Below are positions 3,825 through 42,879 of a DNA stretch of 64,000 nt, piece by piece (within the stretch, counting starts at the first letter, position 1; each line of letters opens with the position of its first letter). The notes below the pieces were generated by a model, which was given only the letters and a program-made list of their open reading frames with translations, did not search any database and was not told where the DNA came from. Source of the DNA: Candidatus Omnitrophota bacterium (lineage in GTDB: Bacteria; Omnitrophota; Gorgyraeia; B26-G9); assembly GCA_018817165.1 (NCBI GenBank), contig JAHITY010000128.1:5161-69160 (forward strand), read 5' to 3'. A program made the translations under genes and the position numbers.

Positions 3825-3834
3825 AGGTGATATA

Positions 3835-5419: not shown

Positions 5420-5433
5420 AAGGGAGGGTTTAT

Positions 5434-5872: not shown

Positions 5873-5912
5873 GGTGTTCTTTTGGTTGTATAAAAGAACG
5901 CCATTTTTATTT
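5873..5912 (+). terminator. Terminator-like hairpin between glnK2 and glnN
   Basis: GGTGTTCTTTT-GGTTGTAT-AAAAGAACGCC (11 bp with one G.U) followed by ATTTTTATTT. Confidence 0.4.
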
Positions 5913-5958
5913 ACAAATTAGATTTTAAATTATGAATTAAAACAATAAGGAGGAATTT

Positions 5959-8061: not shown

Positions 8062-8098
8062 GGATTAGTTTAGTTGATAATTAACAATTAGGATCTAA

Positions 8099-8135
8099 AG
8101 AGCGATACTTTAAAAAAGTATCGCTCTTATGTCCA
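8099..8135 (+). terminator. Intrinsic terminator after glnN
   Basis: AGAGCGATACT-TTAAAAAA-GTATCGCTCT, an 11-bp perfect stem followed by TAT. Confidence 0.5.
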
Positions 8136-8156
8136 TTAAAAAGTAACAAAATATTC

Positions 8157-8240
8157 ATAATAATGACTCCAAAAGTGCCTGCTTGGCCGCAGTCATTTTG
8201 GACTAAATCCCTGCCAAAAAGCGGCGGGATCATTTAAAGG
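8157..8240 (+). promoter_or_regulatory. N-leader repeat unit, modules A+B, upstream of the amidotransferase gene
   Basis: ATAATAATGACTCC, hairpin A TCCAAAAGTGCCTGC-TTGGCC-GCAGTCATTTTGGA (8168..8202), hairpin B CCTGCC-AAAAAGC-GGCGGG, then ATCATTTAAAGG and ATG 8251. Confidence 0.6.
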
Positions 8241-8250
8241 ACATTTAAAA

Positions 8251-8979
8251 ATGATATATTTTCTTGAACACGAACCAATCGAAGGCCCGGGGATGTTAAA
8301 GCCTTTGTTTGAAAATAATGGTTTTCTTACTTCGGTAATCAAGCTTTATGATAATCAGGATTTACCGCAGGACTTTGATTCAATAGAAGCAATTGTAAGT
8401 CTTGGCGGCCCAATGAATGTTTATCAAGAAGAGGTTTATCCTTTTTTAAAAAAAGAAGATGAATTCCTTAAAAAAATTATTAAGCTAGATATCCCTTGTT
8501 TGGGTATATGTCTTGGCTCGCAATTAATCGCTAAAGCGGAAAAAGCGCAAGTTAAGAAAGCGGAAAAAGAAGAAATCGGCTGGTTTAAAGTCTCGTTAAC
8601 TGAACATGGCAAGAAAGATGATTTATTCCATCTGGTAAATGAGCAACTTGAAGTTTTTCAATGGCATTCAGATACTTTTAGCGTTCCGGTTGGCGGGGTT
8701 TTATTGGCGCAGGGTTCTGTTTGCCGCAATCAGGCGTTTAGAATAGGTAATAATGTTTATGGATTGCAGTTTCATCTGGAAGTTACGGATAAAGAAGTTT
8801 TTGATTGGACTGGCAAATATTTTAATATTGCGGATTCAGAAAAACAGGAATACGCGAAAGATATGCTGTCAAAATATAGCGAAATAAAAAAAGATTTTGA
8901 GCTGCAAATGGATGTTATTGGCGCGAATTTTCTTAAAATTATTGAGAAGAGAAAGATCGCTGTGGCACAGGAAGTTTAA
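8251..8979 (+). CDS. Class I glutamine amidotransferase-like protein (stand-alone GATase1 domain)
   Basis: Catalytic-Cys motif GICLGSQLIA, and a downstream His in QFHLEV. 242 aa. Confidence 0.7.
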   Translation: MIYFLEHEPIEGPGMLKPLFENNGFLTSVIKLYDNQDLPQDFDSIEAIVSLGGPMNVYQEEVYPFLKKEDEFLKKIIKLDIPCLGICLGSQLIAKAEKAQVKKAEKEEIGWFKVSLTEHGKKDDLFHLVNEQLEVFQWHSDTFSVPVGGVLLAQGSVCRNQAFRIGNNVYGLQFHLEVTDKEVFDWTGKYFNIADSEKQEYAKDMLSKYSEIKKDFELQMDVIGANFLKIIEKRKIAVAQEV

Positions 8980-9016
8980 AAAATTTTAAATATCAGTGCC
9001 CAAAAATTAGGCAAAT

Positions 9017-9342
9017 TAAAATAATGATTCCCGAATCAGCAGCTAGTCGCTGCTTCTCGGGCTAAATTTCCCGCCAGAAAACAGCGGGATAAACGAGCAG
9101 GCTGACTTGACGTCGCATAGAACGTTCCGTAAGTCAGGCTAAATAATAATGATTCCAAAATATCTGCTTGGCCGCAGCTATTTCGGACTAAATTCGAGCA
9201 GGCTGACTTGACGTCGCATAGAACGTTCCGTAAGTCAGGCTAAATAATAATGATTCCGAAAGTATCTGCTTGGCCGCAGCTATTTCGGACTAAATTCGAG
9301 CAGGCTGACTTGACGTCGCATAGAACGTTCCGTAAGTCAGGC
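9017..9342 (+). repeat. Tandem array of 3 N-leader repeat units (A'+B+C, A+C, A+C) upstream of the Fis-like gene and gltBD
   Basis: Units are at 9017..9139, 9142..9240 and 9243..9342, with a period of about 101 nt. The C loop here is TCGCATAGAACGTT. It ends TCTCATTTAAGGGGAT followed by ATG 9359. Confidence 0.7.
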
Positions 9343-9358
9343 TCTCATTTAAGGGGAT

Positions 9359-9622
9359 ATGAGCGCATACACAGATAAAATTAGTATTCTCCAAGAACAA
9401 ATAAAGGATGTTGAGACTTTTTTTCTAAAAAAAGATACAAAACATTTATATAAACACATATTGGAAATAGTCGAAAAACCTTTGATTGAAATGGTTTTAA
9501 AATCAACAAAAGGCAATCAGAAAAAAGCGGCGGTGCTTTTGGGGATTAACCGAAATACATTGTTTGTTAAAATTAAAAAACTTAAGATAAACGCTAAAGA
9601 ATTCAAAGATGCTTCAGATTGA
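9359..9622 (+). CDS. Fis-family (HTH_8) DNA-binding mini-protein
   Basis: 87 aa. C-terminal [24 protein letters not shown] is a Fis/NtrC-type helix-turn-helix. It lies 37 nt upstream of gltB on the same strand. Confidence 0.6.
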
Positions 9623-9658
9623 AAAGCAAAATTCTGAAAAAGAAAGGAATTATTCCGA

Positions 9659-12600
9659 ATGAAGTATAAACATTTACCTGCCAAGCAGGGGCTTTATGAC
9701 CCTAGCTTTGAAAAAGATGCTTGCGGTGTTGGGTTTGTTTGCAATATCAAGGGAGTTAAATCCAATCAGATAATTAAAGATGGATTGACTGTTTTAAGGC
9801 GTATGGCGCATCGTGGTGCCGTGGGCGCTGATCCTAATACCGGGGACGGTGCGGGTCTGCTGATTCAGATGCCGCATAAGTTTTTGGAGAAGGCGGCTGC
9901 TCAGGCAAAGATTAAATTACCGGAATTCGGGTTTTATGGCAGTGGTCTGGTGTTTTTGCCAACAGTTAAAAAAGAACGGGATATCTGCAAGCTTAATTTT
10001 GAAAAAATTATTGAGCAGCAGGGACAGATACTGCTTGGCTGGCGGAAAGTCCCGGTTGATAATTCCTGTATTGGCCCAGTGGCACAGGAGTCTGCTCCGA
10101 TCATCGAGCAGGTATTTATTGCGCGAAATGCCCAAATCCAAGATCCTATGGATTTTGAAAGAAAACTTTATGTTATTAGAAAACTTATTGAAAATTTTGT
10201 CCGCGGGGCTGATCTAAAACAAAAATCTTATTTCTATGTTTCTAATTTATCGTATAAAGTCCTTTCCTATAAAGGATTGCTAATGCCGCATCAGGTTGAT
10301 AAATTCTTTTTGGATTTAAAAGATAAAAGCATCGAAAGTGCTTTATGTTTAGTTCATTCTCGTTATAGTACTAATACTTTTCCTACTTGGGATTTGGCAC
10401 AGCCGTTTCGTTTTTTAGCGCATAATGGAGAAATAAATACGGTTAGAGGTAATATAAACTGGATGCAGGCACGGGAAGGTTTGTTGAAAAGTGAATTATT
10501 TGGGAAAAATATTGAGCAAATGAAACCAATTATTGTTCCGGGCGGAAGTGATTCCGCGACTTTGGATAATGCTTTGGAATTATTACTGCTTTCCGGCAGG
10601 TCTTTGCCGCATGTTATGATGATGCTTGTCCCCAGCGCATGGGAAAACAGTACTTTGATGGATAAAGAACTGCGCGATTTTTATAAATATCATGCTTGTT
10701 TTATGGAACCTTGGGATGGCCCGGCGGCAATTGCTGTGACCGATGGGATTAGAATCAGTGCCGCGCTTGATCGCAACGGTTTACGTCCGGCGCGTTATAT
10801 AGTAACAAAAAACGATTTTATTGTTATGGCCTCTGAAGTTGGGGTTTTGGACATTGCTCCTAAGGATATTGCTTATTCCGGAAGACTTGAGCCGGGAAAA
10901 ATGTTTTTTATTGATACTGAGCAAGGAAGAATTATTAATGACGAAGAATTGAAAAAAAATATTGCTATTTCTCAGCCTTATGGGAAATGGATAGATAGTA
11001 ATTTAGTGGAATTAGCCAGTTTAAAACCAGCTAAGGCTGATAAAAGTAAACAGGAAGATATTCTTACTTGTTTGAAAAGTTTTGGCTACAGTCGAGAAGA
11101 TTTAAAGATGATCATAAAGCCCATGGCTCAAACCGGTCAAGAGCCGACTCATTCTATGGGTAATGATGCTCCGCATGCTATTTTATCGAAAAAGCCGCAA
11201 GTGCTTTATTCCTATTTTAAACAGCTTTTTGCTCAGGTTACCAATCCGGCAGTTGATCCGATCAGGGAAGAAATTGTTATGAGCTGGCAAAGTTTTGTTG
11301 GCGCGCAAAAAAATATTCTAGAGGAAACTCCCGAACATTGCCATACTCTTCGGGTAAAAAACCCCCTATTATCAGACGCTGATCTGGCTAAGATAAAAAA
11401 TGTAAATGCTAAAGGGTTTAAAGCTAAAACAATCTCTCTTTTATTTAATCTGAATGAAAAGAAAAGTTTTATGCAGGCGATTAAAGGGATTTGCGATCAG
11501 GCAGTATTGGCTATTCAGCAGGGGTATACGTTTATTATTTTAAGTGATCGCGGTACTGATAAAGATCAGGCGGCAATTCCCGCGCTTTTAGCAACCGGAG
11601 CGGTGCATCATCATTTAGTCAGAAAAGCCCTGCGTACCCAGATTGGAATCGTAGTGGAGAGTGCAGAGCCAAGAGAGGTGCATCATTTTGCCCTTTTGTT
11701 CGGATATGGTGCTGATTGTATTAATCCTTATTTAATATTTAGGACATTAGATTATTTAATTAAAGAAAAAGAATTAGATATTAGTTTTGAGGAAGCAGCA
11801 AAAAATTATATTAATGCTGTAAAAAAAGGAATATTGAAAATAACTTCTAAAATGGGTATTTGTACTTTGCAAAGTTATAAAGGCGCCCAGATTTTTGAAG
11901 CTTTGGGATTGCATGATCAGGTAATTGAGCGCTGTTTTAAAGGAACTCCTTCGCGCATCGGAGGAGCTGATTTTGAAATTATCCGACAGGAAACTATTTT
12001 AAAACATAAACATGCTTATCCTGAGCGGGAAATCGGTGTCACTGATTTAGCTGTTGGTGGTGTATATCAATGGAAAAGAGATGGAGAAGCGCATCTTTGG
12101 AACCCTCAGAGTATTACTGCTTTGCAGGATGCGACCCGCACAGGCAGTTATGCTAAATATCAGGACTTTGCTAAACTAATAAATGATCAAGCGCAGCAGC
12201 CGATTACTTTGCGCAGTTTGCTTGAATTTAAAGCTAAAGAATCTATTCCGGTTGAGCAGGTTGAGCCTGTGAAAAAAATTGTTAAACGGTTTGTTACCGG
12301 AGCAATGAGTTTTGGTTCAATCAGTAAAGAAATACATGAGTCTTTGGCAATTGTGATGAATCGCTTGGGTGGAATGTCCAATACCGGAGAAGGCGGAGAA
12401 GATCCAGCTCGTTTTAACCGTTTGCCAAATGGTGATTTAAAACGCAGCGCGATCAAGCAGGTTGCGTCCGGACGTTTCGGAGTTACCACAAATTATTTGG
12501 TTAATGCTGATGAATTGCAGATTAAAGTTGCCCAAGGCGCAAAGCCGGGTGAGGGCGGTCAGTTGCCGGGACATAAGGTTAGTTCGATTATTGCTAAGAC

Positions 12601-14182
12601 TCGTTATACAACTCCTGGAGTAACCTTGATCTCTCCTCCGCCGCATCATGATATTTATTCAATTGAAGACCTGGCGCAGTTAATATTTGATTTGAAAAAT
12701 GTTAATCCTCGGGCGCGAATCAGTGTGAAACTTGTTTCAGAAATCGGAGTAGGCACGGTTGCGGCTGGAGTGGCTAAAGGCCATGCGGACATGATTTTGA
12801 TTTCAGGAGGTGATGGCGGAACAGGTGCATCTCCGATGAGTTCAATCCGCCATGCTGGTTTGCCTTGGGAACTGGGGCTTGCGGAAACTCATCAGACTTT
12901 GGTCTTAAATGATTTGAGAAGCCGCGTACGTTTGCAGACAGACGGACAAATGCGTACTGGCCGAGATGTGGCAATTGCCGCTATTTTAGGTGCTGAAGAA
13001 TATGGCTTTTGTACTACTCCTTTAATTGTTATGGGCTGTGTGATGTTAAGACATTGCCATTTGAATAATTGTAATCTGGGCATAGCTACTCAGGATGAAA
13101 TTTTAAGAAAAAGATTCAGAGGCAGAACTGAATATTTAGAAAATTATTTTAATTTTGTGGCGCATGAGTTAAGAAATATTATGGCCAGTCTAGGGGTAAA
13201 AACAATCAATGAGCTTGTGGGCAGAACAGATCTATTGCAGGTTAATTCTAAAATAATTCCTTGGAAAGCAAAAGATATTGATTATTCAAAAATATTGTAT
13301 AAACCTCAGGTTTCCCAGAATGTCAGTGTGTTTTGTACGCAAAAACAGGATCATCAAATATCTAAAGTTTTAGATAGAACGCTGATCAAATTAGCTAAGC
13401 CGGCTTTAGAGCATAAAAAGCAGATTAAGGAAACCTTGAAGATTAAGAATTCAGACCGGACTACTGGAGCGATGCTCAGCGGTGAAGTTGCTAAACTATA
13501 TGGTGAAGACGGGCTTTATGAAGATACAATCAATTTTAAATTTAAAGGTGAAGCTGGTCAGAGTTTTGGGGCGTGGTTGATCAAAGGAATTACTTTTGAG
13601 TTGGAAGGGATTGCTAATGATTATGTAGGTAAAGGGGCATTTGGCGGGAAAATAATTATTTATCCTAATGCGGATAGCAGCTTTATACCCGAGGAAAATA
13701 TCATTATCGGGAATACCACTTTTTATGGAGCAATTGCCGGAGAAGCTTATATTAATGGTATTGCTGGAGAAAGGTTTTGTATTCGTAATTCAGGATTGCA
13801 CGCGGTTGTCGAAGGAGTCGGTGATCATGGTTGTGAGTATATGACCGGGGGAAGGGTTGTTATATTGGGTAAAACCGGGATAAACTTCGGCGCTGGGATG
13901 AGCGGAGGGATTGCTTATATCTATGATGAGGATAATATGTTTAAACAAAGCTGTAATATGAGTATGGTTGAACTGCAAGTGCTTGATGCGGATGATAAGC
14001 AGATGATTTCTAGTCTGATTCGTAATCATTGCAAGTACACGCAAAGTCCGAAAGCAAAGAAGATATACGATAACTTTGTTTCTGAGAGTGATAAATTTAT
14101 AAAAGTAATGCCTTTGGAATATAAACGTATTTTAAGTCAAAAAGAACTGGGCAAAAAACTAGGTCTAGAAAAATCAATGTAG
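9659..14182 (+). CDS. gltB: Glutamate synthase large subunit
   Basis: 1507 aa. Ntn-amidotransferase N-terminus with the catalytic Cys in CGVGFVCNIKG, an FMN/Fe-S central domain, and a C-terminal GXGXG-repeat domain. Confidence 0.96.
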   Translation: MKYKHLPAKQGLYDPSFEKDACGVGFVCNIKGVKSNQIIKDGLTVLRRMAHRGAVGADPNTGDGAGLLIQMPHKFLEKAAAQAKIKLPEFGFYGSGLVFLPTVKKERDICKLNFEKIIEQQGQILLGWRKVPVDNSCIGPVAQESAPIIEQVFIARNAQIQDPMDFERKLYVIRKLIENFVRGADLKQKSYFYVSNLSYKVLSYKGLLMPHQVDKFFLDLKDKSIESALCLVHSRYSTNTFPTWDLAQPFRFLAHNGEINTVRGNINWMQAREGLLKSELFGKNIEQMKPIIVPGGSDSATLDNALELLLLSGRSLPHVMMMLVPSAWENSTLMDKELRDFYKYHACFMEPWDGPAAIAVTDGIRISAALDRNGLRPARYIVTKNDFIVMASEVGVLDIAPKDIAYSGRLEPGKMFFIDTEQGRIINDEELKKNIAISQPYGKWIDSNLVELASLKPAKADKSKQEDILTCLKSFGYSREDLKMIIKPMAQTGQEPTHSMGNDAPHAILSKKPQVLYSYFKQLFAQVTNPAVDPIREEIVMSWQSFVGAQKNILEETPEHCHTLRVKNPLLSDADLAKIKNVNAKGFKAKTISLLFNLNEKKSFMQAIKGICDQAVLAIQQGYTFIILSDRGTDKDQAAIPALLATGAVHHHLVRKALRTQIGIVVESAEPREVHHFALLFGYGADCINPYLIFRTLDYLIKEKELDISFEEAAKNYINAVKKGILKITSKMGICTLQSYKGAQIFEALGLHDQVIERCFKGTPSRIGGADFEIIRQETILKHKHAYPEREIGVTDLAVGGVYQWKRDGEAHLWNPQSITALQDATRTGSYAKYQDFAKLINDQAQQPITLRSLLEFKAKESIPVEQVEPVKKIVKRFVTGAMSFGSISKEIHESLAIVMNRLGGMSNTGEGGEDPARFNRLPNGDLKRSAIKQVASGRFGVTTNYLVNADELQIKVAQGAKPGEGGQLPGHKVSSIIAKTRYTTPGVTLISPPPHHDIYSIEDLAQLIFDLKNVNPRARISVKLVSEIGVGTVAAGVAKGHADMILISGGDGGTGASPMSSIRHAGLPWELGLAETHQTLVLNDLRSRVRLQTDGQMRTGRDVAIAAILGAEEYGFCTTPLIVMGCVMLRHCHLNNCNLGIATQDEILRKRFRGRTEYLENYFNFVAHELRNIMASLGVKTINELVGRTDLLQVNSKIIPWKAKDIDYSKILYKPQVSQNVSVFCTQKQDHQISKVLDRTLIKLAKPALEHKKQIKETLKIKNSDRTTGAMLSGEVAKLYGEDGLYEDTINFKFKGEAGQSFGAWLIKGITFELEGIANDYVGKGAFGGKIIIYPNADSSFIPEENIIIGNTTFYGAIAGEAYINGIAGERFCIRNSGLHAVVEGVGDHGCEYMTGGRVVILGKTGINFGAGMSGGIAYIYDEDNMFKQSCNMSMVELQVLDADDKQMISSLIRNHCKYTQSPKAKKIYDNFVSESDKFIKVMPLEYKRILSQKELGKKLGLEKSM

Positions 14183-14219: not shown

Positions 14220-15671
14220 GTGATGAAAGATGTAAAAGCGTTTTTAAAAATTAAGCGTAAACAGTCAGAATACAGACCAGTGCGGGAACGGATCCGTGAT
14301 TTTCAGGAAGTTGTTGTTTTGCGCCCTAGCGAATATACGCAGGAGCAGGCAGACAGATGTATGGATTGCGGCACACCGTTTTGTCATTCTGCGTGTCCTT
14401 TGGGCAATGATATTCCGGAATGGAATGATTTGGTTATGAAAGGTCAATGGGAAAAGGCTTATCTGTCGCTTAGCGCGACAAATAATTTGCCGGAAGTTAC
14501 CGGAAGGCTTTGTCCCGCGCTTTGTGAATTTGCCTGCGTTTTAGGTTTGGGTGATGATCCGGTTACGATTCGGGAAAATGAATTGGGAATTATTGAGCAC
14601 GCTTTTAAGCATGGATATGTAAAACCTAATCCCCCGAAAAAACGGACAAATAAAAAAGTCGCGGTTATTGGTTCTGGTCCGGCTGGACTTGCTTGCGCTG
14701 ATCAGCTGAATAAAGCGGGGCATAATGTGACTGTGTTTGAAAAGGATAAAAAAATTGGAGCAATACTGCGCTATGGGATTCCTGATTTTAAAATTGAAAA
14801 ATGGCTGCTTGACCGCAGATTGAAAATTTTCAAACAAGAGGGTATAAAATTTGTAACAGGCGTAAACGTCGGGATTGATTTAAAGGTTAGTGAGTTAAAC
14901 AATGATTTTGACGCGGTCTGTTTAACCGGAGGGGCTCATACTCCTCGCGACTTAAATATTCCCGGTCGAGATTTGCAGGGAATTCATTTTGCTATGGATT
15001 TCCTGGTGCAATCTAATAAAAAAATCAGCGGAGAAAAGTTTAAGCTAAATGAGTTTATTGATGCTAAAAATAAGAATGTTGTTATTATCGGCGGAGGAGA
15101 TACCGGCGCTGATTGTGTGGGCGTATCTAATCGTCAGGGGGCTAAGAGTATTATCCAAATAGAAGTCATGCCTAAGCCTCCGCAATCAAGAACCGAGGAT
15201 TTTCCTTGGCCTAAATACCCGATGGTTTTAAAAACATCAAGTTCTCATGAAGAAGGCGGTAAACGTCATTGGGCGCTTCTGACCAAAGAATTTATTGGCA
15301 AAGATGGTCATGTAACTAATTTACAATGCGTGGAAGTTGAATTTGTGAAAGATGAAAAAACCGGGCGCAATAGTCTCAAAGAAATTTCCAATAGTTCTTT
15401 TATGATTGAAGCTGATTTGGTTATCCTTGCGGTTGGTTTTGTTCATCCTGTCCATGGCGGACTCTTATCGGAATTAAAAGTGGATTTGGATGAGCGGGGT
15501 AATGTTAAAACAAATGAACAGTTTATGACCAGTAAAAAAGGCTTTTTTGCTGCCGGAGACATCCGGCGGGGACAGTCTTTAATCGTCTGGGCGATTGCTG
15601 AAGGCAGAAAAGCCGCGCATTATATGGATGCTTATTTAACCGGTAAGGAAAGTCTGCTGCCGATTAAGTAG
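14220..15671 (+). CDS. gltD: Glutamate synthase small subunit (NADPH-dependent)
   Basis: 483 aa. Fe-S Cys cluster CMDCGTPFCHSACPLGNDIPEW, and a dinucleotide fold VAVIGSGPAGLACA. Confidence 0.92.
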   Translation: MMKDVKAFLKIKRKQSEYRPVRERIRDFQEVVVLRPSEYTQEQADRCMDCGTPFCHSACPLGNDIPEWNDLVMKGQWEKAYLSLSATNNLPEVTGRLCPALCEFACVLGLGDDPVTIRENELGIIEHAFKHGYVKPNPPKKRTNKKVAVIGSGPAGLACADQLNKAGHNVTVFEKDKKIGAILRYGIPDFKIEKWLLDRRLKIFKQEGIKFVTGVNVGIDLKVSELNNDFDAVCLTGGAHTPRDLNIPGRDLQGIHFAMDFLVQSNKKISGEKFKLNEFIDAKNKNVVIIGGGDTGADCVGVSNRQGAKSIIQIEVMPKPPQSRTEDFPWPKYPMVLKTSSSHEEGGKRHWALLTKEFIGKDGHVTNLQCVEVEFVKDEKTGRNSLKEISNSSFMIEADLVILAVGFVHPVHGGLLSELKVDLDERGNVKTNEQFMTSKKGFFAAGDIRRGQSLIVWAIAEGRKAAHYMDAYLTGKESLLPIK

Positions 15672-28611: not shown

Positions 28612-29724
28612 ATGAATGATATAAATGGCGAGCATAAAAGCAAAAAAGCAAAAATTGTTCTAGAAGACGGAAGAACTTTTCAAGGTTATTCTTTTGGGGC
28701 AACTGGCACTACCTTTGGCGAAGTTGTTTTTAATACCAGCATGGCTGGTTATCAGGAAATCCTTACTGACCCCTCATACAAAGGTCAAATTGTTACGATG
28801 ACTTATCCTCTTATTGGCAATTATGGTGTAAACAAGCAAGATGTTGAATCAAGCAAACCTTTTGTAGAAGCATTTATTGTTAAAGAATGTTCGCGAATTG
28901 CCAGCAATTGGCGTTCTAATGATACATTAGCTTCATATCTTAGAAAAAATAATATTATTGGGATTGAAGGTGTTGATACTCGCGCTCTGACTCGGCACAT
29001 TCGGCTAAAAGGGGCTTTGAAAGCAGTTATATCCACCGAAGATTTGGACGATAAAAGCCTGCTTGAAAAAGTTAATGCGTCTTCTGGGCTTGTGGGTATT
29101 GATTTAGTCAAAGAAGTTACTTGTTCCCAAGTTTATGAGTGGAATAATCAGGGGAAATATCATGTTATTGTCCTTGATTGCGGGGTAAAGTTAAATATTC
29201 TGCGTTCCTTGGTATTAAATAATTTTAAAGTAACTGTTGTTCCAGCACAGACAAGCGCAGAGGATATTCTAAAACTTAAACCGGATGGTTTAATGCTTTC
29301 CAATGGACCGGGAGATCCTGAGGCAGTTACCTATGTTATTGAGACTGTTAAAAAATTACTGGATAAGTTGCCGATTTTCGGAATATGCTTAGGTCAGCAG
29401 ATGCTGGGCTTGGCTTTAGGCGGCAAAACTTATAAACTTAAATTTGGACATCATGGCGGTAATCAGCCGGTTAAAGATTTAAAAACAGGTAAAATTGATA
29501 TTACTGTGCAGAATCATGGATTTTGCGTTGATATTGATTCTCTGAATAAAAATGATATTGAGATTACACATATGAATCTTAATGATAAGACTTTAGAGGG
29601 TATTAGACATAAAAAACTGCCAATTTTTAGTGTGCAGTTTCATCCTGAATCTTGTCCCGGCCCTCATGATTCCGCGTATTTATTCGCGAATTTTGGGGAA
29701 ATGATTAAAAAACATAAAAAGTAG
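28612..29724 (+). CDS. carA: Carbamoyl-phosphate synthase small (glutaminase) subunit
   Basis: 370 aa. GICLGQQM catalytic Cys and a CPSase small-chain N-domain. Confidence 0.95.
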
Positions 29725-29731
29725 AAAAAAT

Positions 29732-32700
29732 ATGCCCAAAAGAACAGATATAAAAAAAATATTAATTATTGGTTCAGGTCCGATTATTATTGGACAAGCT
29801 TGTGAGTTTGATTATTCAGGCACGCAGGCTTGCAAGGCATTGCGCGAGGAAGGGTTTGAAGTTGTTTTGATTAATTCCAACCCTGCAACAATAATGACTG
29901 ATCCAGAAATAGCAAATGCTACTTATATTGAGCCGATTACTCCGGAAGTATTGGAAAAGATTATTGCCAAAGAACGTCCGGATGCTTTGCTTCCTACCTT
30001 AGGTGGGCAGACAGCGCTTAATACGGCAATGCAGGCATACGAGCAGGGTATTCTTAAAAAATATAATGTTGAGATGATCGGTGCAAATATAGAAGCGATT
30101 CAAAAAGCAGAAGATAGAAAGCATTTTAAAGAAGCAATGATAAAGATCGGCATGGATCTGCCTAAAAGCGCTTTAGCTTATAATATGGCTGAGGCTAAAG
30201 ATGCTTTAAATCAAATAGGATTGCCGTTGATTATTCGTCCAAGTTTCACTATGGGCGGAACTGGCGGAGGGATTGCGCAAACTGAAGAAGAATTTGAAAA
30301 AATTTGTCAGCTGGGATTGCGCAATAGCATGATTAATGAAATATTGATCGAAGAATCAATATTTGGCTGGAAAGAGTATGAGCTGGAAGTAATGCGTGAT
30401 GTCAAAGACAATGTTGTTATTATTTGTTCAATTGAAAATTTTGATCCCATGGGAATCCATACTGGTGATTCGATAACAGTAGCTCCTGCTCAGACTTTGA
30501 CAGATAAAGAATATCAGATAATGCGCGATGCCGCTTTGGCGATTATTCGCGAAATAGGAGTGGAAACTGGCGGATCTAATATTCAGTTCGCGGTTAATCC
30601 TGAAAATGGCAGAATGATTGTTATTGAGATGAATCCGCGTGTTTCCCGCAGTTCTGCTTTAGCGAGTAAAGCCACGGGTTTTCCAATTGCTAAATTCGCG
30701 GCAAAATTAGCGGTAGGATTTACCTTGGATGAAATACAGAATGATATAACCAGAGAAACCCCGGCTTCTTTTGAGCCGACAATTGATTATTGTGTGGTAA
30801 AAATTCCTCGGTTTACTTTTGAAAAATTTCCCGAAGCCCAGGATATTTTGGGTATTTCAATGAAGTCAGTTGGTGAAACAATGGCGATTGGCAGAACATT
30901 TAAAGAAGCATTGCAAAAAGGTTTAAGAGGTTTGGAAATCGGCCATGTTGGTTTTGACAATAAAAATGATTTTCGAGAGATTGAGCAGGAGAAATTATTG
31001 CAGAGGCTTAAAGAGCCTAATGCTTCGCGTATTTTTTATATTAAATATGCGTTTCAAAAAGGCATGAGTTCTGAAGAGATTTGTAAATTAACTTATATTG
31101 ATCCTTGGTTCATTGATAATTTAAAGCAAATTGTTGAATTGGAAGAAGAAATAGTAAATCAAGGAAAAGATATTTTTCAGATTACTCCCGAATTATTGCG
31201 CAAAGCAAAAGAATATGGATTTGGCGATGAACAGTTGGCGAAATTACTGAATACTGATGAAATTACGGTCCGGAATCAAAGAAAAAAACTAGACATTACC
31301 GTAACCTATAAATTAGTCGATACCTGCGGCGCGGAGTTTGAAGCGTATACACCATATTATTATTCAACTTATGAGCAGGAAGATGAGACCCGCATTTCAA
31401 ATAAGAAAAAAATTATGATCTTAGGTGGCGGTCCGAATCGAATCGGTCAGGGAATAGAATTTGACTATTGTTGCTGTCATGCCTCGTTTGCTTTAAAAGA
31501 GCTGGGATTTGAAACAATAATGGTTAATTCAAATCCCGAGACTGTTTCTACTGATTATGATACTTCGGACAAACTTTATTTTGAGCCATTGACATTTGAA
31601 GATGTAATGAATATTGTTGATCGCGAAAAACCTGATGGAATTATTGTCCAATTTGGCGGGCAAACTCCATTAAACCTGGCAAGAAAACTGAAGGATGCCG
31701 GAGCCCCGATAATTGGAACTTCTGTAGAGTCAATTGATCGCGCTGAAGATCGGGACAAATTTTCACAGTTAATTAAAGAATTGGGAATTAATCAGCCGCC
31801 TAATGGATCAGCGACATCAAGAGATCAGGCAATTATTATTGCTAAAGAAATAGGATATCCGATATTAGTCAGACCTTCATATGTTTTGGGTGGTCGAGCG
31901 ATGAGGATTGTTTATAATGAAAAAGATTTAACAGAATTTATGGTCGAAGAAGCGGAAGCGATTGATGTCTCAAAGGAAAAACCGATTTTGATCGATAAGT
32001 TTTTAGAAGATGCTGTTGAAGTTGATGTGGATGCGCTATCTGATGGACATACTACGATTATTGGCGGGATCATGGAACATATCGAAGAAGCCGGAGTCCA
32101 TTCTGGAGATTCTGCCTGTGTGCTACCTCCGCATACTTTAAGCGAAAAGATTCTGGATATTATTAGAGATAATACTAAGCTCTTATCAAAAAAATTAGAA
32201 GTAATCGGGCTTTTAAATATACAATTCGCAATAAAAAATAATATTGTGTATGTGCTTGAAGTTAATCCTCGGGCATCGCGCACTGCTCCTTTTGTAAGCA
32301 AGGCGACAGGAATTCCTTTGGCAAAAATCGCCGCGAAAATTATGGTAGGTAAAACACTCGATGAATTAGGAATAAAAGACGAGAAAAAAATAAAACATGT
32401 CGCGGTAAAAGAATCAGTATTGCCCTTTTCCCGGTTTTCCGGAGTTGATATCATCCTGGGGCCTGAGATGAAGTCAACAGGCGAAGTAATGGGAATTGAC
32501 AAGACTTTTGGTATTGCTTTTTATAAGTCACAATTGGCCGCGGGATCAGTTTTACCTAAAACAGGAAAAATCTTTATTAGCGTTAGAGCGCATGATAAAA
32601 AAGCTATTGTTTCTGTTGGAAAAAAACTGGTTGAGTTAGGTTTTGAGATTATTGCGACAAAAGGAACATATAAGGTTTTAAATGATAATAATATTAAAGC

Positions 32701-32971
32701 AACTGTAATCGATAAAATCAGCGATAAGATCAGTGATAATAATGTGCTGGATTTAATCAGACAGGGAAAAATCAAGCTGATTATAAATACTCCGACGGGA
32801 CGGAAAAGCCAGTCAGATATGAAGTCGATAAGAAATGCTGCGGTAATGCATGGCATCTCATGTATCACAACTATCCAGGGAGCGCAGGCTGCGGTAAATG
32901 GAATAGAAGCAATATTGGAAAAAGATTTTTCAGTTACATCAATTCAGGAATTCATTAAGCATTCCGGATAA
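29732..32971 (+). CDS. carB: Carbamoyl-phosphate synthase large subunit
   Basis: 1079 aa. Duplicated ATP-grasp halves and a C-terminal MGS-like domain. Confidence 0.96.
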
Positions 32972-32981
32972 AGAGGATAGT

Positions 32982-34358
32982 ATGTGTGGAATATTTGGTA
33001 TTGCTGGACATAAAGAAGCGGCGCGTTTAACCTATTTAGGTTTATATGCTCTGCAGCACCGCGGAGAAGAAAGTGCGGGTATTGTCAGTTATGATAGAGG
33101 TAGAATAAATTCTTCTCAGGGCATGGGTTTGGTTGAGGACGTTTTTGATGAAAGCGCGATCCGGTCTTTAAAAGGCGCGATAGCCATAGGACATGTTCGC
33201 TATTCAACAACTGGATCAAGTCTGGAAAGAAACATTCAGCCGTTTCTGGTCAATCATAAAAAAGGACATATTGCCGTAGCGCATAATGGAAATTTGACTA
33301 ATACTAGTCATTTGCGGGGAACCCTAGAAGAGCAGGGTTCAATATTTCAGACAACAATGGATTCAGAAGCAATTGTTCATTTTGTCGCGCAATCAAAAGA
33401 TAAGGATTATCGCAAGAGAGTAATCCATGCTTTATCTAATTTAGAGGGAGCATATTCATTAGTTATGCTGCTTGATGATGTTTTAGTTGGTGCGCGTGAT
33501 CCGTATGGTTTTAGGCCTTTATGCTTGGGTAAATTAAACGGGGCTTATGTGCTTGCCAGTGAAACTTGCGCTTTAGATCTGATTCAGGCTGAATATATTC
33601 GCGAAATTGAACCCGGCGAGATTGTTTTTATTCGGGATAAAAAATTAGAATCAATCAAACCTTTTCCCAAACAAAAACACGCGTTCTGTATTTTTGAATA
33701 CATATATTTTGCTAGACCGGATAGCAACATTTTTGGTAAGAATGTTTATTTGACCAGAAAGCGTTTAGGGGAGGAAATGGCAAAAGAGTCGCCAGCTGAA
33801 TGTGATCTGGTTATGGCTATACCTGACTCAGGTAATGCCGCGGCATTGGGGTTTGCTAAAAAATCAAAAACTCCTTATGAAGAAGGAATGATCAGGAATC
33901 ATTATGTCGGTAGAACCTTTATTCAACCATCTCAGTTTATAAGAGATTTTCGCGTAAAAGTAAAACTAAATCCGATTAAAGATGTAATCAAAGGTAAGCG
34001 GTTGGCAATTATCGAAGATTCTATTGTTCGCGGGACAACAAGTAGAGCAAGAATAAAAACTATTCGTGAATCCGGAGCAGAAAAAATGCATATGCGCATT
34101 AGTTGTCCTCCGATCAAAGCGCCGTGTTTTTATGGAATTGATTTTCCCACAAAAAAAGAATTAATTGCCGCTAATTATACGGTCAAAGAAATAGAAAAAT
34201 TTATGGGCTTAGACAGCTTGAAATATTTAAGCCAAGAAGGTTTGTTGAAAGCAATGCTTTTGCCGGCCTGTGAATTTTGTACCGCGTGTTTTGATGGCAA
34301 TTATCCGACTAAAATTCCTAAGAAATTTTCCAAGAAAATGCTAGAAAAAAAGCGTTAA
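32982..34358 (+). CDS. purF: Amidophosphoribosyltransferase
   Basis: MCGIFGI N-terminal Cys nucleophile. PRTase domain. C-terminal Cys ligands CEFCTACFDGNYP for the 4Fe-4S cluster. Confidence 0.95.
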   Translation: MCGIFGIAGHKEAARLTYLGLYALQHRGEESAGIVSYDRGRINSSQGMGLVEDVFDESAIRSLKGAIAIGHVRYSTTGSSLERNIQPFLVNHKKGHIAVAHNGNLTNTSHLRGTLEEQGSIFQTTMDSEAIVHFVAQSKDKDYRKRVIHALSNLEGAYSLVMLLDDVLVGARDPYGFRPLCLGKLNGAYVLASETCALDLIQAEYIREIEPGEIVFIRDKKLESIKPFPKQKHAFCIFEYIYFARPDSNIFGKNVYLTRKRLGEEMAKESPAECDLVMAIPDSGNAAALGFAKKSKTPYEEGMIRNHYVGRTFIQPSQFIRDFRVKVKLNPIKDVIKGKRLAIIEDSIVRGTTSRARIKTIRESGAEKMHMRISCPPIKAPCFYGIDFPTKKELIAANYTVKEIEKFMGLDSLKYLSQEGLLKAMLLPACEFCTACFDGNYPTKIPKKFSKKMLEKKR

Positions 34359-34500
34359 ACAGAATATTTTATTTAAGAATTATCAAAAGGGATGACTTGT
34401 GGTAGGCTAATAGTAATGAATAAAAGAGTGTGTAGTGATTATTAAGGCATAGAAGTATAGTTAAACAAGTTTTTTGTGGAGTATCCTAAGAAACGAGTAG

Positions 34501-36102
<1,602 letters not shown>

Positions 36103-36106
36103 TAAA

Positions 36107-36814
36107 ATGGTAAAACAAGTAAAATCAGAAAAATCATATATCAATGCTTTGAGTAAAATCAGTAAAGCAATTACAAGTGATCTTTATCTTGAAGATATGT
36201 TAAAGCTTATTGTAACTGTTACCGCGAATGTTATGCACGCGAAAATTTGCGCGCTTTGGCTATTAGATGAAAAGAACCAAACTTTAAAAATTAAAGCTAC
36301 TCAAGCTTTGAGCAGTGAATATCTGAAGGAAAGATCAATTAATGTTGGGGAAGGCGTTGTCGGAATGGTTGCGAAAACTAAGCAGCCGATTATTATTGCT
36401 GATGTTCTTTTAGATCCGCAGTATAAAGAAAAAAAATTAGCAAAAAAAGAAAAGTTTGTTTCAATGCTTAGCGTTCCGATGATGGTTAAACAAAAAGTGA
36501 TCGGTGTTATTAATTGTTATACTACAAAAAAATACGATTTTGAAAAAAGCGATGTCGAGGTTTTAATGACTGTGGCTAATCAAGCAGCTGTTGCAATCGA
36601 AAATACGGAGCTGTTAGTTAAGACTAGAGTTATTCAGGAAGAATTGGAAACAAGAAAAAAAGTTGAAAAAGCAAAAGGGATATTGATGAAGGATCAGAAT
36701 GTTGATGAAGATGAAGCTTATAATATGCTGAGAAAATCAAGCATGTCTAAGCGTATATCTATGAAAGATATTGCTGAAGCAATCATTCTTTCTTTCGAGA
36801 TTAAGAAGGGGTAA
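36107..36814 (+). CDS. GAF-ANTAR regulator (RNA-binding antitermination-type output domain)
   Basis: N-terminal GAF-like domain. C-terminal VEKAKGILMKDQNVDEDEAYNMLRKSSMSKRISMKDIAEAII is a clear ANTAR signature. The ORF track start 36077 overlaps pyrG, so ATG 36107 is used. Confidence 0.75.
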   Translation: MVKQVKSEKSYINALSKISKAITSDLYLEDMLKLIVTVTANVMHAKICALWLLDEKNQTLKIKATQALSSEYLKERSINVGEGVVGMVAKTKQPIIIADVLLDPQYKEKKLAKKEKFVSMLSVPMMVKQKVIGVINCYTTKKYDFEKSDVEVLMTVANQAAVAIENTELLVKTRVIQEELETRKKVEKAKGILMKDQNVDEDEAYNMLRKSSMSKRISMKDIAEAIILSFEIKKG

Positions 36815-37064: not shown

Positions 37065-37202
37065 TTGGTAGTCAAAAAGAAAAAAGTAGCAAAGAAGGCA
37101 GTGGCTAAGAAAGTGGTAAAAAAAGTGGTAAAAAAAGCAGTGGCTAAGAAAGTAGTAAAAAAAGTAGCAAAGAAAGTAGTAGCTAAGAAAAAGAAAAAAT
37201 AA
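37065..37202 (+). CDS. Lysine-rich micro-protein (45 aa, KKxV/A repeats), histone-H1-tail-like. TTG start, not in the ORF track
   Basis: SD AAAGGGGGTG 7 nt upstream of TTG. The open frame is (M)VVKKKKVAKKAVAKKVVKKVVKKAVAKKVVKKVAKKVVAKKKKK*. The other strand is closed. Confidence 0.45.
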   Translation: MVVKKKKVAKKAVAKKVVKKVVKKAVAKKVVKKVAKKVVAKKKKK

Positions 37203-37228: not shown

Positions 37229-37340
37229 ACAGGATCCCAATTTTGATTAATTGAACAAGGATGTTATCAATTCCCAAAGGCGGGGAAATTAAGCGATCAA
37301 TGACCCGAAATTTTGTTCCTTGCCTTTGGGAGGGATCAAA
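37229..37340 (+). ncRNA. Candidate structured RNA element in the long leader of the HD-GYP gene
   Basis: Nested inverted repeats GATCCC...GGGATC (outer) and TCCCAAAGGC...GCCTTTGGGA (10 bp). No T-run follows. Confidence 0.25.
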
Positions 37341-37507
37341 GAAAAACTACCTAAAAACCTGCAATAATATTTTGTTCATATCTTTTTTAATATCTTTTGA
37401 TTTATATATTTAATAAGAGTATTTTCTTTCTTGACAATTTTAGCTTTAAAGTTTTAGAATAGGTATTAGATTGAATACGTTCATCGCTTTTCTTAGAAAG
37501 GAAAATA

Positions 37508-38719
37508 ATGAGTGACTTGCCTGAATCGCATGAAAGAATGCTTTTAGAGATTGAACAATTGCGTAAAAGAATAAACGAACTTCAAGGGGCGGAACTGAAG
37601 TTTCAAAAAGCAGAGCAAGAATTGAGGCAGGCTAAGGAATATGCTGAATTTGTTTTTCGATCTACTCCAAACGCGATTTTTACAATTGATCCTAACCGGA
37701 GTATAACCAGTTGGAATAATAAAGCTGAAGAAATTACGGGTTATTCTTTTAAGGAGATAATTGGAAAGCAGTGTACTGTTTTTGCGGATAGCCCTTGTAA
37801 GGATATGTGCGCGGTTTTTTCGGATAATGTCGAGAAACCTATTTTTAACGCGGAATGTTCGATTAAAAGAAAAGATGGGAAAATAATTGTTATTTCAAAA
37901 AATGCGGAAATATTAAAGGATGAGCATGGAAATACAATCGGCGCTATAGAATCATTTGAAGATATTACCGGAAGAAAAAATGAAGAGCAATCCTTTCAAA
38001 AATCTTATCAGACTTTAGAAATGCAGATTCGTGAGAGGACTGCTGAACTTTCTAAAATGAATGAAGCGCTGCTTGTTGAAATCATGCAAAGGAAAAAAGT
38101 TCAGAAAAATTTTGAGGATGGCAATGAAAAATTGCAGCGTGTATTAAATGAAACAATTAGTGCTCTAGCCTTTACAGTTGAAAAAAGAGATCCCTATACC
38201 GCTGGACATCAGGAACGTGTAACTCACTTGGCAGAAGCTATTGCCAGGGAAATGAAATTACCCGCGGATCAGATATTAGGGGTGAAGACTGCGGCAATGA
38301 TTCATGATATTGGAAAAATTTGTGTTCCCGCGGAAATTTTAAGCAAGCCCTCTAAGCTAACTACGTATGAATTTAATATTATTAAAGCTCATCCAGAAGT
38401 AGGTTATGATATATTAAAGGAAATTGAATTTCCTTGGCCAGTTTCTTCAATTGTTGTGCAGCATCATGAGAGAATGGATGGAAGTGGATACCCAAATTCT
38501 TTAAAAGGTAATGAAATATTAATTGAGGCGCATATTCTAATTGTTGCTGATGTTGTTGAAGCCATGGCTTCGCATCGTCCTTATAGACCTGCATTGGGTA
38601 TTGAGCGAGCTTTAGATGAAATTATTAATAAAAAAGGAATATTGTATAATGTGGATGTTGTAGACGCTTGTATTAAGCTGTTTATGGAGCAGGATTTTAA
38701 GATTGAGCAAATAGTGTAA
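37508..38719 (+). CDS. PAS-domain HD-GYP phosphodiesterase (c-di-GMP)
   Basis: PAS block FRSTPNAIFTIDPNRSITSWN. HD motif MIHDIGKI. HHERMDGSGYP, the GYP motif. Confidence 0.85.
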   Translation: MSDLPESHERMLLEIEQLRKRINELQGAELKFQKAEQELRQAKEYAEFVFRSTPNAIFTIDPNRSITSWNNKAEEITGYSFKEIIGKQCTVFADSPCKDMCAVFSDNVEKPIFNAECSIKRKDGKIIVISKNAEILKDEHGNTIGAIESFEDITGRKNEEQSFQKSYQTLEMQIRERTAELSKMNEALLVEIMQRKKVQKNFEDGNEKLQRVLNETISALAFTVEKRDPYTAGHQERVTHLAEAIAREMKLPADQILGVKTAAMIHDIGKICVPAEILSKPSKLTTYEFNIIKAHPEVGYDILKEIEFPWPVSSIVVQHHERMDGSGYPNSLKGNEILIEAHILIVADVVEAMASHRPYRPALGIERALDEIINKKGILYNVDVVDACIKLFMEQDFKIEQIV

Positions 38720-42164: not shown

Positions 42165-42485
42165 ATGGATATGTTTGAAATATTAGAAAAGTTAATTTTG
42201 GCTGGTGTCGGTTTTGCTAGTTTAACCAAAGAAAAAGCAGAAAAGATTGTTGACGCATTGATTGCTAAAGGAGAGGTTAAAGCTAAAGACAAAAAAGCGA
42301 TATTAAACCGATTGCTTAAGCACACACAAAAACTTGATAAAGATCTTGAGAATAAGATGAGACAGGTATCTTTAAATGTAGTCAAGAACTCGCAAAAACA
42401 AATTGATGCTTTAAATAAAAAATTAGCGCAGTTAAACAAAAGTATGAGCAGCTCAAAAAAAAGTGATAAGAAAAAGAAAAATTAA
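42165..42485 (+). CDS. Phasin-like protein (PHA granule-associated family, PF05597-like), paralog 1
   Basis: LILAGVGFASLTKEKAEKIVDALIAKGEV matches the phasin-family N-terminal block. Confidence 0.55.
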   Translation: MDMFEILEKLILAGVGFASLTKEKAEKIVDALIAKGEVKAKDKKAILNRLLKHTQKLDKDLENKMRQVSLNVVKNSQKQIDALNKKLAQLNKSMSSSKKSDKKKKN

Positions 42486-42513: not shown

Positions 42514-42879
42514 ATGTTTGAATTAATTGAGAAAATTATACTTGCTGGTGTTGGGTTGGCAAATTTAACCAAAGAAAAAGCTGAGAGCCTGGTTGATATG
42601 CTGATTAAAAAAGGTCAAATACAGGCAAAAGATAAAAAAGCTGTTTTAAGCCGCTTACTTAAAAGTACAAAGCAGTTAGATAGTGATCTTGAAAATAAGA
42701 TGAAACAGGTGTCGATAAGTGTGGTTAAGAATTCACAGAAGCAGATTGATGCTTTGAATAAAAAATTAGCACAGCTAGCTAAAAGTTTAGAGGTAGAGAA
42801 GAAAAAAACTAAAGTGGTTAAAGCTGCTCCGGTGGCTGTAAAGAAAAAAGTAAAGGCTAAAGCAAAGAAGAAAGTGTAA
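42514..42879 (+). CDS. Phasin-like protein, paralog 2, with a Lys/Ala-rich histone-H1-like tail
   Basis: About 70% identical to paralog 1, plus a KKKTKVVKAAPVAVKKKVKAKAKKKV tail as in PhaF-type proteins. Confidence 0.55.
   Translation: MFELIEKIILAGVGLANLTKEKAESLVDMLIKKGQIQAKDKKAVLSRLLKSTKQLDSDLENKMKQVSISVVKNSQKQIDALNKKLAQLAKSLEVEKKKTKVVKAAPVAVKKKVKAKAKKKV

Follow-up and report, generated by a model that had tools for sequence, protein, structure and literature searches.

A GAF-ANTAR protein as the probable nitrogen regulator of an Omnitrophota bacterium, with canonical antitermination sites in its nitrogen leaders

Which RNAs would a regulator act on whose gene closes a run of glutamine-dependent biosynthetic genes? 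The question is raised by a 64,000-nt stretch of DNA (the window) from the metagenome-assembled genome (MAG) of a Candidatus Omnitrophota bacterium (GCA_018817165.1, contig JAHITY010000128.1, positions 5,161-69,160 of the forward strand), in which carA, carB, purF and pyrG are followed by the gene of a one-component protein with a GAF and an ANTAR domain, and in which a cluster of ammonium- and glutamine-handling genes stands at the window start. We find canonical ANTAR attenuators in the leaders of that cluster: pairs of hairpins whose six-nucleotide loops have A at position 1 (A1) and G at position 4 (G4), the second of them overlapping an intrinsic terminator. From these sites and their counterparts in other Omnitrophota we propose, with a probability of roughly 0.6, that the GAF-ANTAR protein is an antiterminator acting on the terminator switches of the nitrogen leaders. 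It is probably the nitrogen regulator of this bacterium.

The regulator gene is on the same strand as the four genes before it, with intergenic gaps of 7, 10, 145 and 4 nt in the order carA, carB, purF, pyrG, GAF-ANTAR (coordinates of all features are collected in Table 1). A mechanical list of open reading frames (ORFs) starts it at an upstream TTG that overlaps pyrG (36077-36814, 245 aa); with the ATG at 36107 the protein has 235 aa, the pyrG stop codon (TGA, 36100-36102) is followed by TAAA and then this ATG, and the AGGTGA ribosome-binding site of the regulator gene sits inside the pyrG 3' end. An earlier reading of the letters without database searches (the sequence-only reading) had placed the gene 4 nt after pyrG, correctly so with the ATG at 36107 as the start; it had also counted four glutamine-amidotransferase genes, which stands as four genes and three glutamine-using enzymes, carB encoding a synthetase subunit that is not itself an amidotransferase. 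We see no plus-strand terminator-like site above background within 28612-36814, and an AU-rich hairpin region lies 3' of the regulator gene. The GAF-ANTAR gene is co-transcribed with carAB-purF-pyrG and is probably translationally coupled to pyrG.

The C-terminus of the protein carries an ANTAR domain (Pfam PF03861; residues 186-237 of the 245-aa ORF, E-value 2e-20, 72.7 bits against a cutoff of 27.3), the best PDB match of which is EutV (6wsh; 53 residues aligned, E-value 4.6e-12), followed by Rv1626, NasR and AmiR. EutV is the ANTAR protein in which recognition of the A1/G4 hexaloop was established. RNA binding by NasR is abolished by alanine at R340, W362, R366 and N373 (PMC7496416), and in an alignment to NasR (4akk) and EutV (6wsh) the regulator has R, Y, R and R at these positions, the last as in EutV, the NasR numbering being mapped by eye from the printed alignment. 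By these matches the regulator is a bona fide ANTAR protein. Its GAF_2 domain (Pfam; 1.1e-23, 84.4 bits against a cutoff of 28.6) is closest in NCBIfam to PtsP (PRK11061, residues 5-190, 1.4e-23) and then to NifA (TIGR01817, residues 4-190, 1.3e-17), both domain-level matches that, being limited to the GAF domain, score far under the cutoffs set for whole proteins; the PtsP GAF structures 3ci6 and 3trc are within the top three PDB matches (about 1e-16). GAF domains of PtsP (EI-Ntr) and NifA sense nitrogen status via 2-oxoglutarate and/or glutamine, and our best guess from this similarity is that the regulator would bind a nitrogen-status metabolite such as one of these two. A Candidatus Omnitrophica MAG encodes a protein with 100% identity, and at least 119 other clusters, the remainder of the 120 matches listed, are 72-94% identical to the regulator; nearly all source-named clusters among the matches listed are from Omnitrophota, with one from a bacterium of the Planctomycetes-Verrucomicrobia-Chlamydiae (PVC) group. 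Such tight sequence conservation is unusual for a regulator.

ANTAR attenuators are short and have variable linkers, and we therefore used an explicit pattern scan, with simulations, for paired hairpins with 6-nt loops (A1 and G4) followed by an overlapping terminator; the sites that stand out have arms of 13-17 nt. Three such sites occur in the window, all on the coding strand and together in nitrogen-gene leaders that add up to about 1 kb: before the first PII-amtB-PII genes, before a small helix-turn-helix (HTH) ORF with the second amtB and its PII gene, and before the gene for type III glutamine synthetase (GS). The minimum-energy fold at each is the first hairpin (P1) plus the terminator, and the second hairpin (P2) and the intrinsic terminator are mutually exclusive. 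Simulated windows hold a mean of 0.34 sites with arms of at least 13 nt, and three or more, the number observed, in only 2 of 150. Window genes lie nearly all on the plus strand, and the GC skew is positive in all 2-kb bins (0.11-0.30), which fits a long leading-strand stretch; co-orientation of an element and a gene is therefore uninformative within the window. Attenuators and the hairpin modules described below have no match in Rfam 15, either at the gathering threshold over the whole window (which only three tRNAs pass) or at E-values up to 5 over 800-9700.

A fourth attenuator belongs to a gene for an extracytoplasmic function (ECF)-type sigma factor at the head of the cluster. Its leader is seen in L121, a locus from the same organism that reaches 5165 nt upstream of the window: a sigma-70 promoter (TTGACA-17-TATACT) is followed directly by a canonical attenuator, in which P2 and terminator are again mutually exclusive by fold and scan. 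Two 49-nt direct repeats (32-80 and 227-275, 90% identical), each with a hairpin potential of about 12 bp (CCUGAACCGAAU / AUUCUGGUUCCGG), flank the second terminator of this leader; they are not seen in the corresponding leaders of two other loci, L138 and L139. In addition, a promoter-like motif, GTTACC-N15-TTACTTGT, lies 6-100 nt upstream of each of the three window attenuators, with no other occurrence in the window at two or fewer mismatches. It recurs with fixed spacing at five leaders elsewhere (L044 9723, L075 1274, L138 11404 and 15918, and L139 about 11396, where the second element is ATACTTGT), and is seen only upstream of ANTAR-attenuated nitrogen operons. The ECF sigma factor plausibly reads this motif.

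Comparison with other Omnitrophota connects the regulator gene to these elements. We examined eight contexts, the window and seven further ones from six looked-up homologues, and in 8/8 the GAF-ANTAR gene is adjacent to, or at most two genes from, genes of glutamine or glutamate enzymes (pyrG, glnA, gdhA, Glu_synthase). L003 has carB, carB, purF, DUF1846 and pyrG before the regulator; L004 has carA, carB, purSQL and pyrG, then an opposite-strand glnA and then GAF-ANTAR, and L137 is similar; L001 reads gdhA, GAF-ANTAR, Glu_synthase, carB, guaA, purL, hisF, purF. The order in L138 (glnA, GAF-ANTAR, ECF sigma, a 249-aa ORF, amtB, PII, amtB, PII, glnA, GATase, HTH_8, gltB) closely resembles the nitrogen cluster at the window start, and L139 has two GAF-ANTAR paralogues, one between gdhA and Glu_synthase and the other in the order glnA, GAF-ANTAR, ECF sigma, amtB, PII. 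Both L138 and L139 present GAF-ANTAR, attenuator, ECF sigma and amtB-PII in that order: the sigma genes directly downstream of the regulator are orthologues of the one in the window (41-53% identity), and their attenuators start no more than about 40 nt past the stop codon of GAF-ANTAR. Given these neighbourhoods and the match between L138 and the window cluster, the linkage of the regulator to glutamine, glutamate and ammonium genes is conserved and no accident of this genome.

The attenuators recur as well. They precede amtB in L044, an hcp-like gene heading a nitrogen cluster in L075 (hcp being named from the N-terminal sequence only), Glu_synthase in L001 (two in tandem, 54 nt after the GAF-ANTAR stop), Glu_synthase, ECF sigma, amtB and glnA in L138, and pyrG, ECF sigma and amtB in L139. 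Stems vary among genomes and loops retain A1 and G4, while AAC-AAAGGC-GUUCUU, the P2 and terminator start of the window site at 948, recurs in L075 and L138. Across 334 kb of module-bearing metagenome contigs with mostly non-nitrogen genes, convincing attenuators appear only at the sigma and PII leaders of L108 and L121. A scan of genome contigs for amtB gave Omnitrophota in only 3/80 loci returned, because amtB is highly conserved.

Table 1. Elements and genes considered here, in window coordinates unless a locus is named.
Feature	Position	Strand	Sequence, evidence or remark
GAF-ANTAR one-component regulator, 235 aa	36107-36814	+	Pfam GAF_2 and ANTAR
Attenuator, PII-amtB-PII leader	948-1011	+	P1 CACAC-AUUGUU-GUGUG; P2 AAC-AAAGGC-GUU; terminator GGCGUUCUUAA...UUAAGGAACG + U7; hexaloop pair 948-978; z -3.6
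Attenuator, leader of HTH ORF, amtB-2, PII-3	3749-3826	+	P1 GGUAC-AUUGAA-GUACC; P2 AAAAC-AAAGAC-GUUUU; 20-bp terminator stem + U5; hexaloop pair 3749-3785; z -6.4
Attenuator, GS type III leader	5826-5914	+	P1 UAGGCAC-AAAGAA-GUGCUUA; P2 GAC-AAUGGU-GUU; terminator AUGGUGUUCUUUU...AAAAGAACGCCAU + U5; hexaloop pair 5826-5878; z -6.9
Attenuator, sigma-gene leader	L121 5057-5150		AUAAC-AAAGAU-GUUAU / GGC-AAUGUU-GCU + terminator; hexaloop pair 5091-5125; ends ~15 nt before window position 1; scan, fold
Promoter-like motif GTTACC-N15-TTACTTGT	819-847	+	exact match; upstream of PII-amtB attenuator
Promoter-like motif GTTACC-N15-TTACTTGT	3700-3728	+	exact match
Promoter-like motif GTTACC-N15-TTACTTTA	5791-5819	+	2 mismatches; motif scan
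Second, tandem terminator, PII leader	1013-1066	+	single hexaloop hairpin AAGAC-UAUGGC-GUCUU overlaps 5' arm; fold
Second terminator, sigma-gene leader	123-190	+	single hexaloop hairpin GGC-GAUGCA-GCC overlaps 5' arm; non-canonical, G at loop position 1; sequence, fold
ANTAR-type dual hexaloop without U-tract terminator	37254-37340	+	P1 AAC-AAGGAU-GUU; P2 UUCCC-AAAGGC-GGGGA; hexaloop pair 37254-37286; pattern scan; fold z -3.6
carA, glutamine-hydrolysing carbamoyl-phosphate synthase small subunit	28612-29724	+	Pfam CPSase_sm_chain + GATase; NCBIfam TIGR01368 524.6 bits (cutoff 307)
carB, carbamoyl-phosphate synthase large subunit	29732-32971	+	Pfam CPSase_L_D1/D2/D3 and MGS
purF, amidophosphoribosyltransferase	32982-34358	+	NCBIfam TIGR01134 529 bits (cutoff 350)
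pyrG, CTP synthase	34504-36102	+	Pfam CTP_synth_N + GATase; NCBIfam TIGR00337 812 bits (cutoff 463)
ECF-type sigma factor gene, head of nitrogen cluster	286-816	+	NCBIfam TIGR02937 sigma70-ECF 59.7 bits (cutoff 42.9)
PII	1183-1506	+	Pfam/NCBIfam; third, shorter PII-like gene, ahead of first amtB-PII pair
amtB	1819-3195	+	Pfam/NCBIfam
PII	3307-3648	+	Pfam/NCBIfam
HTH ORF, XRE/HTH_3-like, 59 aa, stand-alone	3835-4014	+	after second attenuator
amtB (amtB-2)	4079-5419	+	Pfam/NCBIfam
PII (PII-3)	5434-5775	+	Pfam/NCBIfam
GS type III	5959-8061	+	Pfam/NCBIfam
Class-I GATase	8251-8979	+	Pfam/NCBIfam
Fis/NtrC C-terminal-like HTH_8 ORF, 87 aa, stand-alone	9359-9622	+	directly 5' of gltB; present in L138 too
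gltB	9659-14182	+	Pfam/NCBIfam
gltD	14220-15671	+	Pfam/NCBIfam
Module A copy starts	1091, 1604, 1703, 8157, 9142, 9244	+	
Module A' copy starts	1509, 9020	+	
Module B copy starts	1147, 3264, 8210, 9070	+	
Module C copies	1551-1613, 1651-1713, 1750-1812, 3631-3695, 9087-9152, 9188-9253, 9290-9355	+	

In the circuit that we propose, the N-terminal GAF domain would sense a small molecule and the C-terminal ANTAR domain would bind nascent RNA, the active regulator holding the A1/G4 hexaloop pairs in the leaders of nitrogen operons; with the second hairpin held, the overlapping terminator could not form and transcription would continue. Four leaders are the predicted targets: those of the ECF sigma gene, PII-amtB-PII, amtB2-PII and the glutamine synthetase III gene. 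Since no promoter motif stands between the glutamine synthetase gene and the class-I GATase gene and gltBD behind it, transcription from the glutamine synthetase promoter may extend into the latter genes as well. If the ECF sigma factor does read the promoter motif, the arrangement would form a feed-forward cascade: release of the sigma gene by the regulator would come first, and every operon that depends on sigma would in addition be gated by the regulator. We infer both the pairing of this particular ANTAR protein with these elements and the direction of its response. A wider version, which we hold only tentatively and consider doubtful as a whole, would make a PtsP/NifA-like GAF-ANTAR protein the master sensor of nitrogen throughout the phylum, a one-component, metabolite-gated antiterminator whose coherent feed-forward loop takes in the attenuated ECF sigma gene and all sigma-dependent nitrogen operons, the hexaloop pair beside the regulator gene a titrating or autoregulatory RNA, and the hairpin modules a separate, undescribed class of structured leader RNAs that spreads like a mobile element.

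That hexaloop pair, at 37254-37340, has no U-tract terminator: its P2 competes with a long hairpin (CCCAAAGGC.../...GCCUUUGGG) that ends without a U tract, so that the mutual exclusion of P2 and an intrinsic terminator seen at the other sites is missing here. A homologous element in L003 (11133-11245) keeps the whole arrangement, with compensating changes in the competing hairpin. Between the GAF-ANTAR gene and the hexaloops lies a small, Lys-rich ORF that consists almost wholly of Lys/Ala/Val repeats (37065-37202, KKVAKKAVAKKVV..., with 12- and 27-nt periodicity), the position of which is conserved in L003 (10887-11081). EutX and Rli55 are ANTAR-sequestering small RNAs of Enterococcus and Listeria that act on EutV. 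The element resembles them as an ANTAR dual-hairpin site uncoupled from a terminator and encoded near the regulator, and differs in having no riboswitch attached; by analogy one may speculate that it titrates the regulator or feeds back on it.

Several points weigh against the proposed circuit. The regulator gene is at least 27 kb from its proposed targets in the window, and neither pattern scan nor inspection by eye found an ANTAR site in the window's carA leader or purF-pyrG spacer. By demanding A1 and G4 the scan presupposes part of the loop consensus, and the figure of 2/150 is by itself modest. Each leader has a second terminator in tandem (in the window, 123-190 and 1013-1066), and the single hexaloop hairpin that overlaps its 5' arm keeps G4 and lacks A1. 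Similarity of the GAF domain identifies no ligand, and what connects the promoter motif to the ECF sigma factor is their co-location. Finally, a different ANTAR protein of the genome could be the true partner, L139 having two GAF-ANTAR paralogues. As to the single hairpins, ones of the form GAC-NNNGGC-GUC, like that in the PII leader, also occur in L044 (about 9805-9880) and L139 (about 11500-11550) and keep G4-G5-C6; this form may be a variant ANTAR half-site.

The strongest alternative builds on the question of partnership: the attenuators would be real and controlled by another ANTAR protein, such as a response-regulator ANTAR, with its gene elsewhere in the genome, and the GAF-ANTAR protein would have other targets, such as nucleotide or amidotransferase genes, or only the element at 37254-37340. 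The distance between regulator gene and nitrogen cluster in the window, the paralogues of L139, the dual hexaloop right beside the regulator gene and the L139 attenuator before pyrG all suit it. We nevertheless consider it unlikely: GAF-ANTAR genes lie directly upstream of attenuated nitrogen leaders in L138, L139 and L001, regulator and sites are both highly conserved across the phylum, and no further ANTAR gene appears in the precomputed Pfam lists for the window and about 200 kb of related loci. A gene for an NtrC-type activator or GlnR was likewise not noticed in the window or related loci, where no search aimed at either was made.

It is less probable still, and in our view improbable, that the hexaloop hairpins are incidental and the terminators simple attenuators, or the places where upstream transcripts end, under some other control such as the sigma factor alone, PII or translation of small ORFs. 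Chance matches do arise in AT-rich sequence, with a mean of 1.1 per window at the looser cut of a terminator arm of at least 10 nt, but the three sites with arms of 13 nt or more all lie in 1 kb of nitrogen leaders, each between the shared promoter motif and its gene; the P1-P2-terminator layout recurs in six other genomes with different stems and the same A1/G4 loops, and the P2 sequence AAC-AAAGGC-GUU is conserved.

The sequence-only reading had looked for the regulator's targets elsewhere, in tandem hairpin modules of the glutamine and ammonium leaders. Such modules exist: in the window they are confined to the nitrogen cluster (1091-9355, at 1091-1812, 3264-3290, 3631-3695, 8157-8236 and 9020-9355), with seven copies of module C, eight of A or A' and none in the carA leader, and the family is also present in L086-L136. 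Module A is a long hairpin with a covarying stem and the loop C-U(U/A/G)GG(C/U)C-G. Three stems make up module C (AAAUUC, P1, an (A/U)GG bulge, CUGACUU-G-ACG-UC, P3, UC-CGU-AAGUCAG, P1'); a CUCAUUUAA-GGAG tail comes next, and a start codon follows 19-28 nt past the end of its core match. We identified 56 exact-core copies in 51 metagenome loci; among 53 distinct sequences the basal stem, closing pair and apical stem covary, with 95% of cells paired and double-sided changes in 79 cells (27.8 in shuffles; 0/500 shuffles reach 79), and divergent copies add covariation of the middle stem (L107 and L133 together have six copies, of which four are divergent). Module C is thus a genuine structured RNA.

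As ANTAR targets the modules look wrong. The module A loop, U(U/A/G)GG(C/U)C, has no A1, a departure from the A1/G4 rule that had already been acknowledged, the apical loop of module C is variable, and modules abut ribosome-binding sites. No terminator follows any window module, and there is therefore nothing in them to read through. The genes behind module C include, by Pfam, those for a flavin reductase and an IMPDH-like protein besides ilvC and atpG, then rplI, rpmE, tpiA, fhs, ahcY and groEL by N-terminal sequence, and tRNA-Ser(GGA) by ARAGORN; only L108 and L121 are nitrogen loci, leaving 49/51 that are not, and no module locus has an ANTAR gene. A covariance model of module C retrieved the seven window copies and nothing else (E-value of 1 or less) in 194 kb of GAF-ANTAR and nitrogen loci of other Omnitrophota, including L138 with its matching cluster order. 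Nothing convincing turned up at the groES-groEL-IMPDH loci of three other Omnitrophota (best E-value 0.47), and the same locus of a fourth, L133, does carry module C. The co-occurrence of ANTAR gene and repeat family offered as a check of the module model is therefore absent at the loci read. Although the modules of the window are limited to the nitrogen cluster, the module A hexaloop has G at position 4 (UUGGCC) and module C is a real structured RNA, we regard it as very improbable that the GAF-ANTAR protein binds tandem A/C modules and governs read-through by a new pairing of regulator and RNA, when canonical dual hexaloops in the same leaders already explain ANTAR control of these operons. 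The broader idea that the regulator controls the nitrogen leaders is well supported by the comparative evidence, with canonical attenuators, overlooked earlier, in place of the modules.

We judge the modules to be a separate layer outside the ANTAR system. Their pattern is nearer to interspersed elements of the repetitive extragenic palindrome (REP) and bacterial interspersed mosaic element (BIME) type than to the target of a dedicated regulator: several types of hairpin module form mosaics and tandem arrays in transcribed intergenic space, many copies occur per genome with a patchy distribution among related genomes and absence from orthologous groESL and nitrogen loci, and modules have been exchanged at a site that close relatives share (the window has A+B where L108, a relative at 87-92% identity, has A+C before PII-1). 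They differ from REP/BIME elements in a core conserved, with compensatory changes in three stems, across several Omnitrophota lineages of 33-55% G+C, in the fixed distance to the start codon, in the conserved tail and in occurring in direct orientation only. Since the core is conserved across lineages and stands at a fixed distance from the ribosome-binding site, the modules may have a role at the RNA level, perhaps in stability, processing or translation.

Other explanations of the modules were set aside. Unrelated housekeeping genes and a tRNA downstream rule out a nitrogen or glutamine riboswitch, and the variable apical stem, which would shift the -35/-10 spacing by 16 nt, rules out promoters. 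The core of module C is perfectly complementary, over 12-13 nt, to E. coli 16S rRNA (1189-1201), and pairing with or mimicry of 16S rRNA was considered; we treat the match as coincidence. Complementarity of at least 12 nt arises in 21/2000 shuffles, and the divergent members at L107 9397-9458 and L133 1148-1211 alter exactly the complementary bases with the stem retained. Modules had no match in viral contigs, and a literature search with the motif sequences returned primers and probes only. Before tRNA-Ser(GGA), module C ends 12 nt 5' of the tRNA (L090 2558-2691, L091 2405-2540, L096 1180-1313, L098, L119 and L120), the 5' GGAGAGG of which takes the Shine-Dalgarno position; a module A hairpin precedes most of these copies, and none does in L090 and L119. 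L104 and L135 each have an A+C unit with an intrinsic terminator right behind it, an arrangement that resembles a small RNA gene standing on its own.

Some further features of the window accompany these systems. Judged as an ECF sigma factor, a protein of about 170-200 aa with sigma-70 regions 2 and 4, the product of the gene at 286-816 qualifies by exceeding the TIGR02937 cutoff, with its Pfam r2 and r4 matches below theirs. The amtB-PII pair is tandemly duplicated (1819-3648 and 4079-5775, 72-85% DNA identity in blocks), and a very stable 14-bp hairpin without a U tract (8090-8135, z-score -7.1) lies 3' of the glutamine synthetase gene, just 5' of the A+B modules in front of the class-I GATase gene. 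Downstream of the regulator, a PAS + HD-GYP (HD_5) protein, likely a cyclic di-GMP (c-di-GMP) phosphodiesterase, is encoded at 37508-38719 behind its own strong sigma-70 promoter (37431-37460); one study reports binding of c-di-GMP to the ANTAR protein NasT of Pseudomonas putida (PMC10783516). Farther on, a small ORF with only a weak DUF6847 match is tandemly duplicated (42171-42443 and 42514-42786, 73% identity).

The proposal would give an uncultivated phylum a concrete and testable model of nitrogen control, in which a GAF-ANTAR protein has well-defined candidate RNAs and homology suggests a candidate class of ligand. GAF-ANTAR is among the commonest ANTAR architectures; the literature searched gave no such protein with an assigned ligand, signal or target and no link between Omnitrophota and ANTAR. 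The RNA switch itself is textbook ANTAR and its mechanism is not new. The novelty is modest and lies in the proposed GAF-sensed ANTAR nitrogen regulon of Omnitrophota, to which an attenuated ECF sigma gene and a common promoter motif add further layers. One attenuation system over both a sigma gene and the regulon of that sigma factor would be an uncommon circuit design.

Among known systems, the GnfK/GnfR cascade of Geobacter sulfurreducens, which reportedly consists of two-component systems and depends on sigma-54, likewise places its regulator within a cascade with a transcription-initiation factor; here the regulator is a one-component protein, the upper layer would be an attenuated ECF-type sigma gene, and the promoter motif is a dedicated one. 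Over its N-terminal 190 residues the regulator matches the GAF domains of PtsP and NifA best in sequence, but its predicted output is RNA binding and not phosphotransfer or sigma-54 activation. With EutV, AmiR and NasR (Ramesh et al. 2012, PMC3369931; Walshaw et al. 2022, PMC8934654) the proposed system shares the output domain, the A1/G4 hexaloop pair, the overlap of its second hairpin with the leader terminator and the theme of nitrogen metabolism. It differs in its GAF sensor (EutV relies on a phosphorylated receiver, NasR on a NIT domain and AmiR on its partner protein AmiC), in its host from an uncultivated phylum and in leaders with tandem terminators. Many phyla have predicted ANTAR dual-hairpin sites in front of PII, amt, glnA and glutamate synthase genes (PMC3369931), and the proposed system resembles the predicted ANTAR nitrogen regulons of Desulfotomaculum and Pelobacter in the same study, where PII, amt, glnA and glutamate synthase operons are each gated by an ANTAR attenuator.

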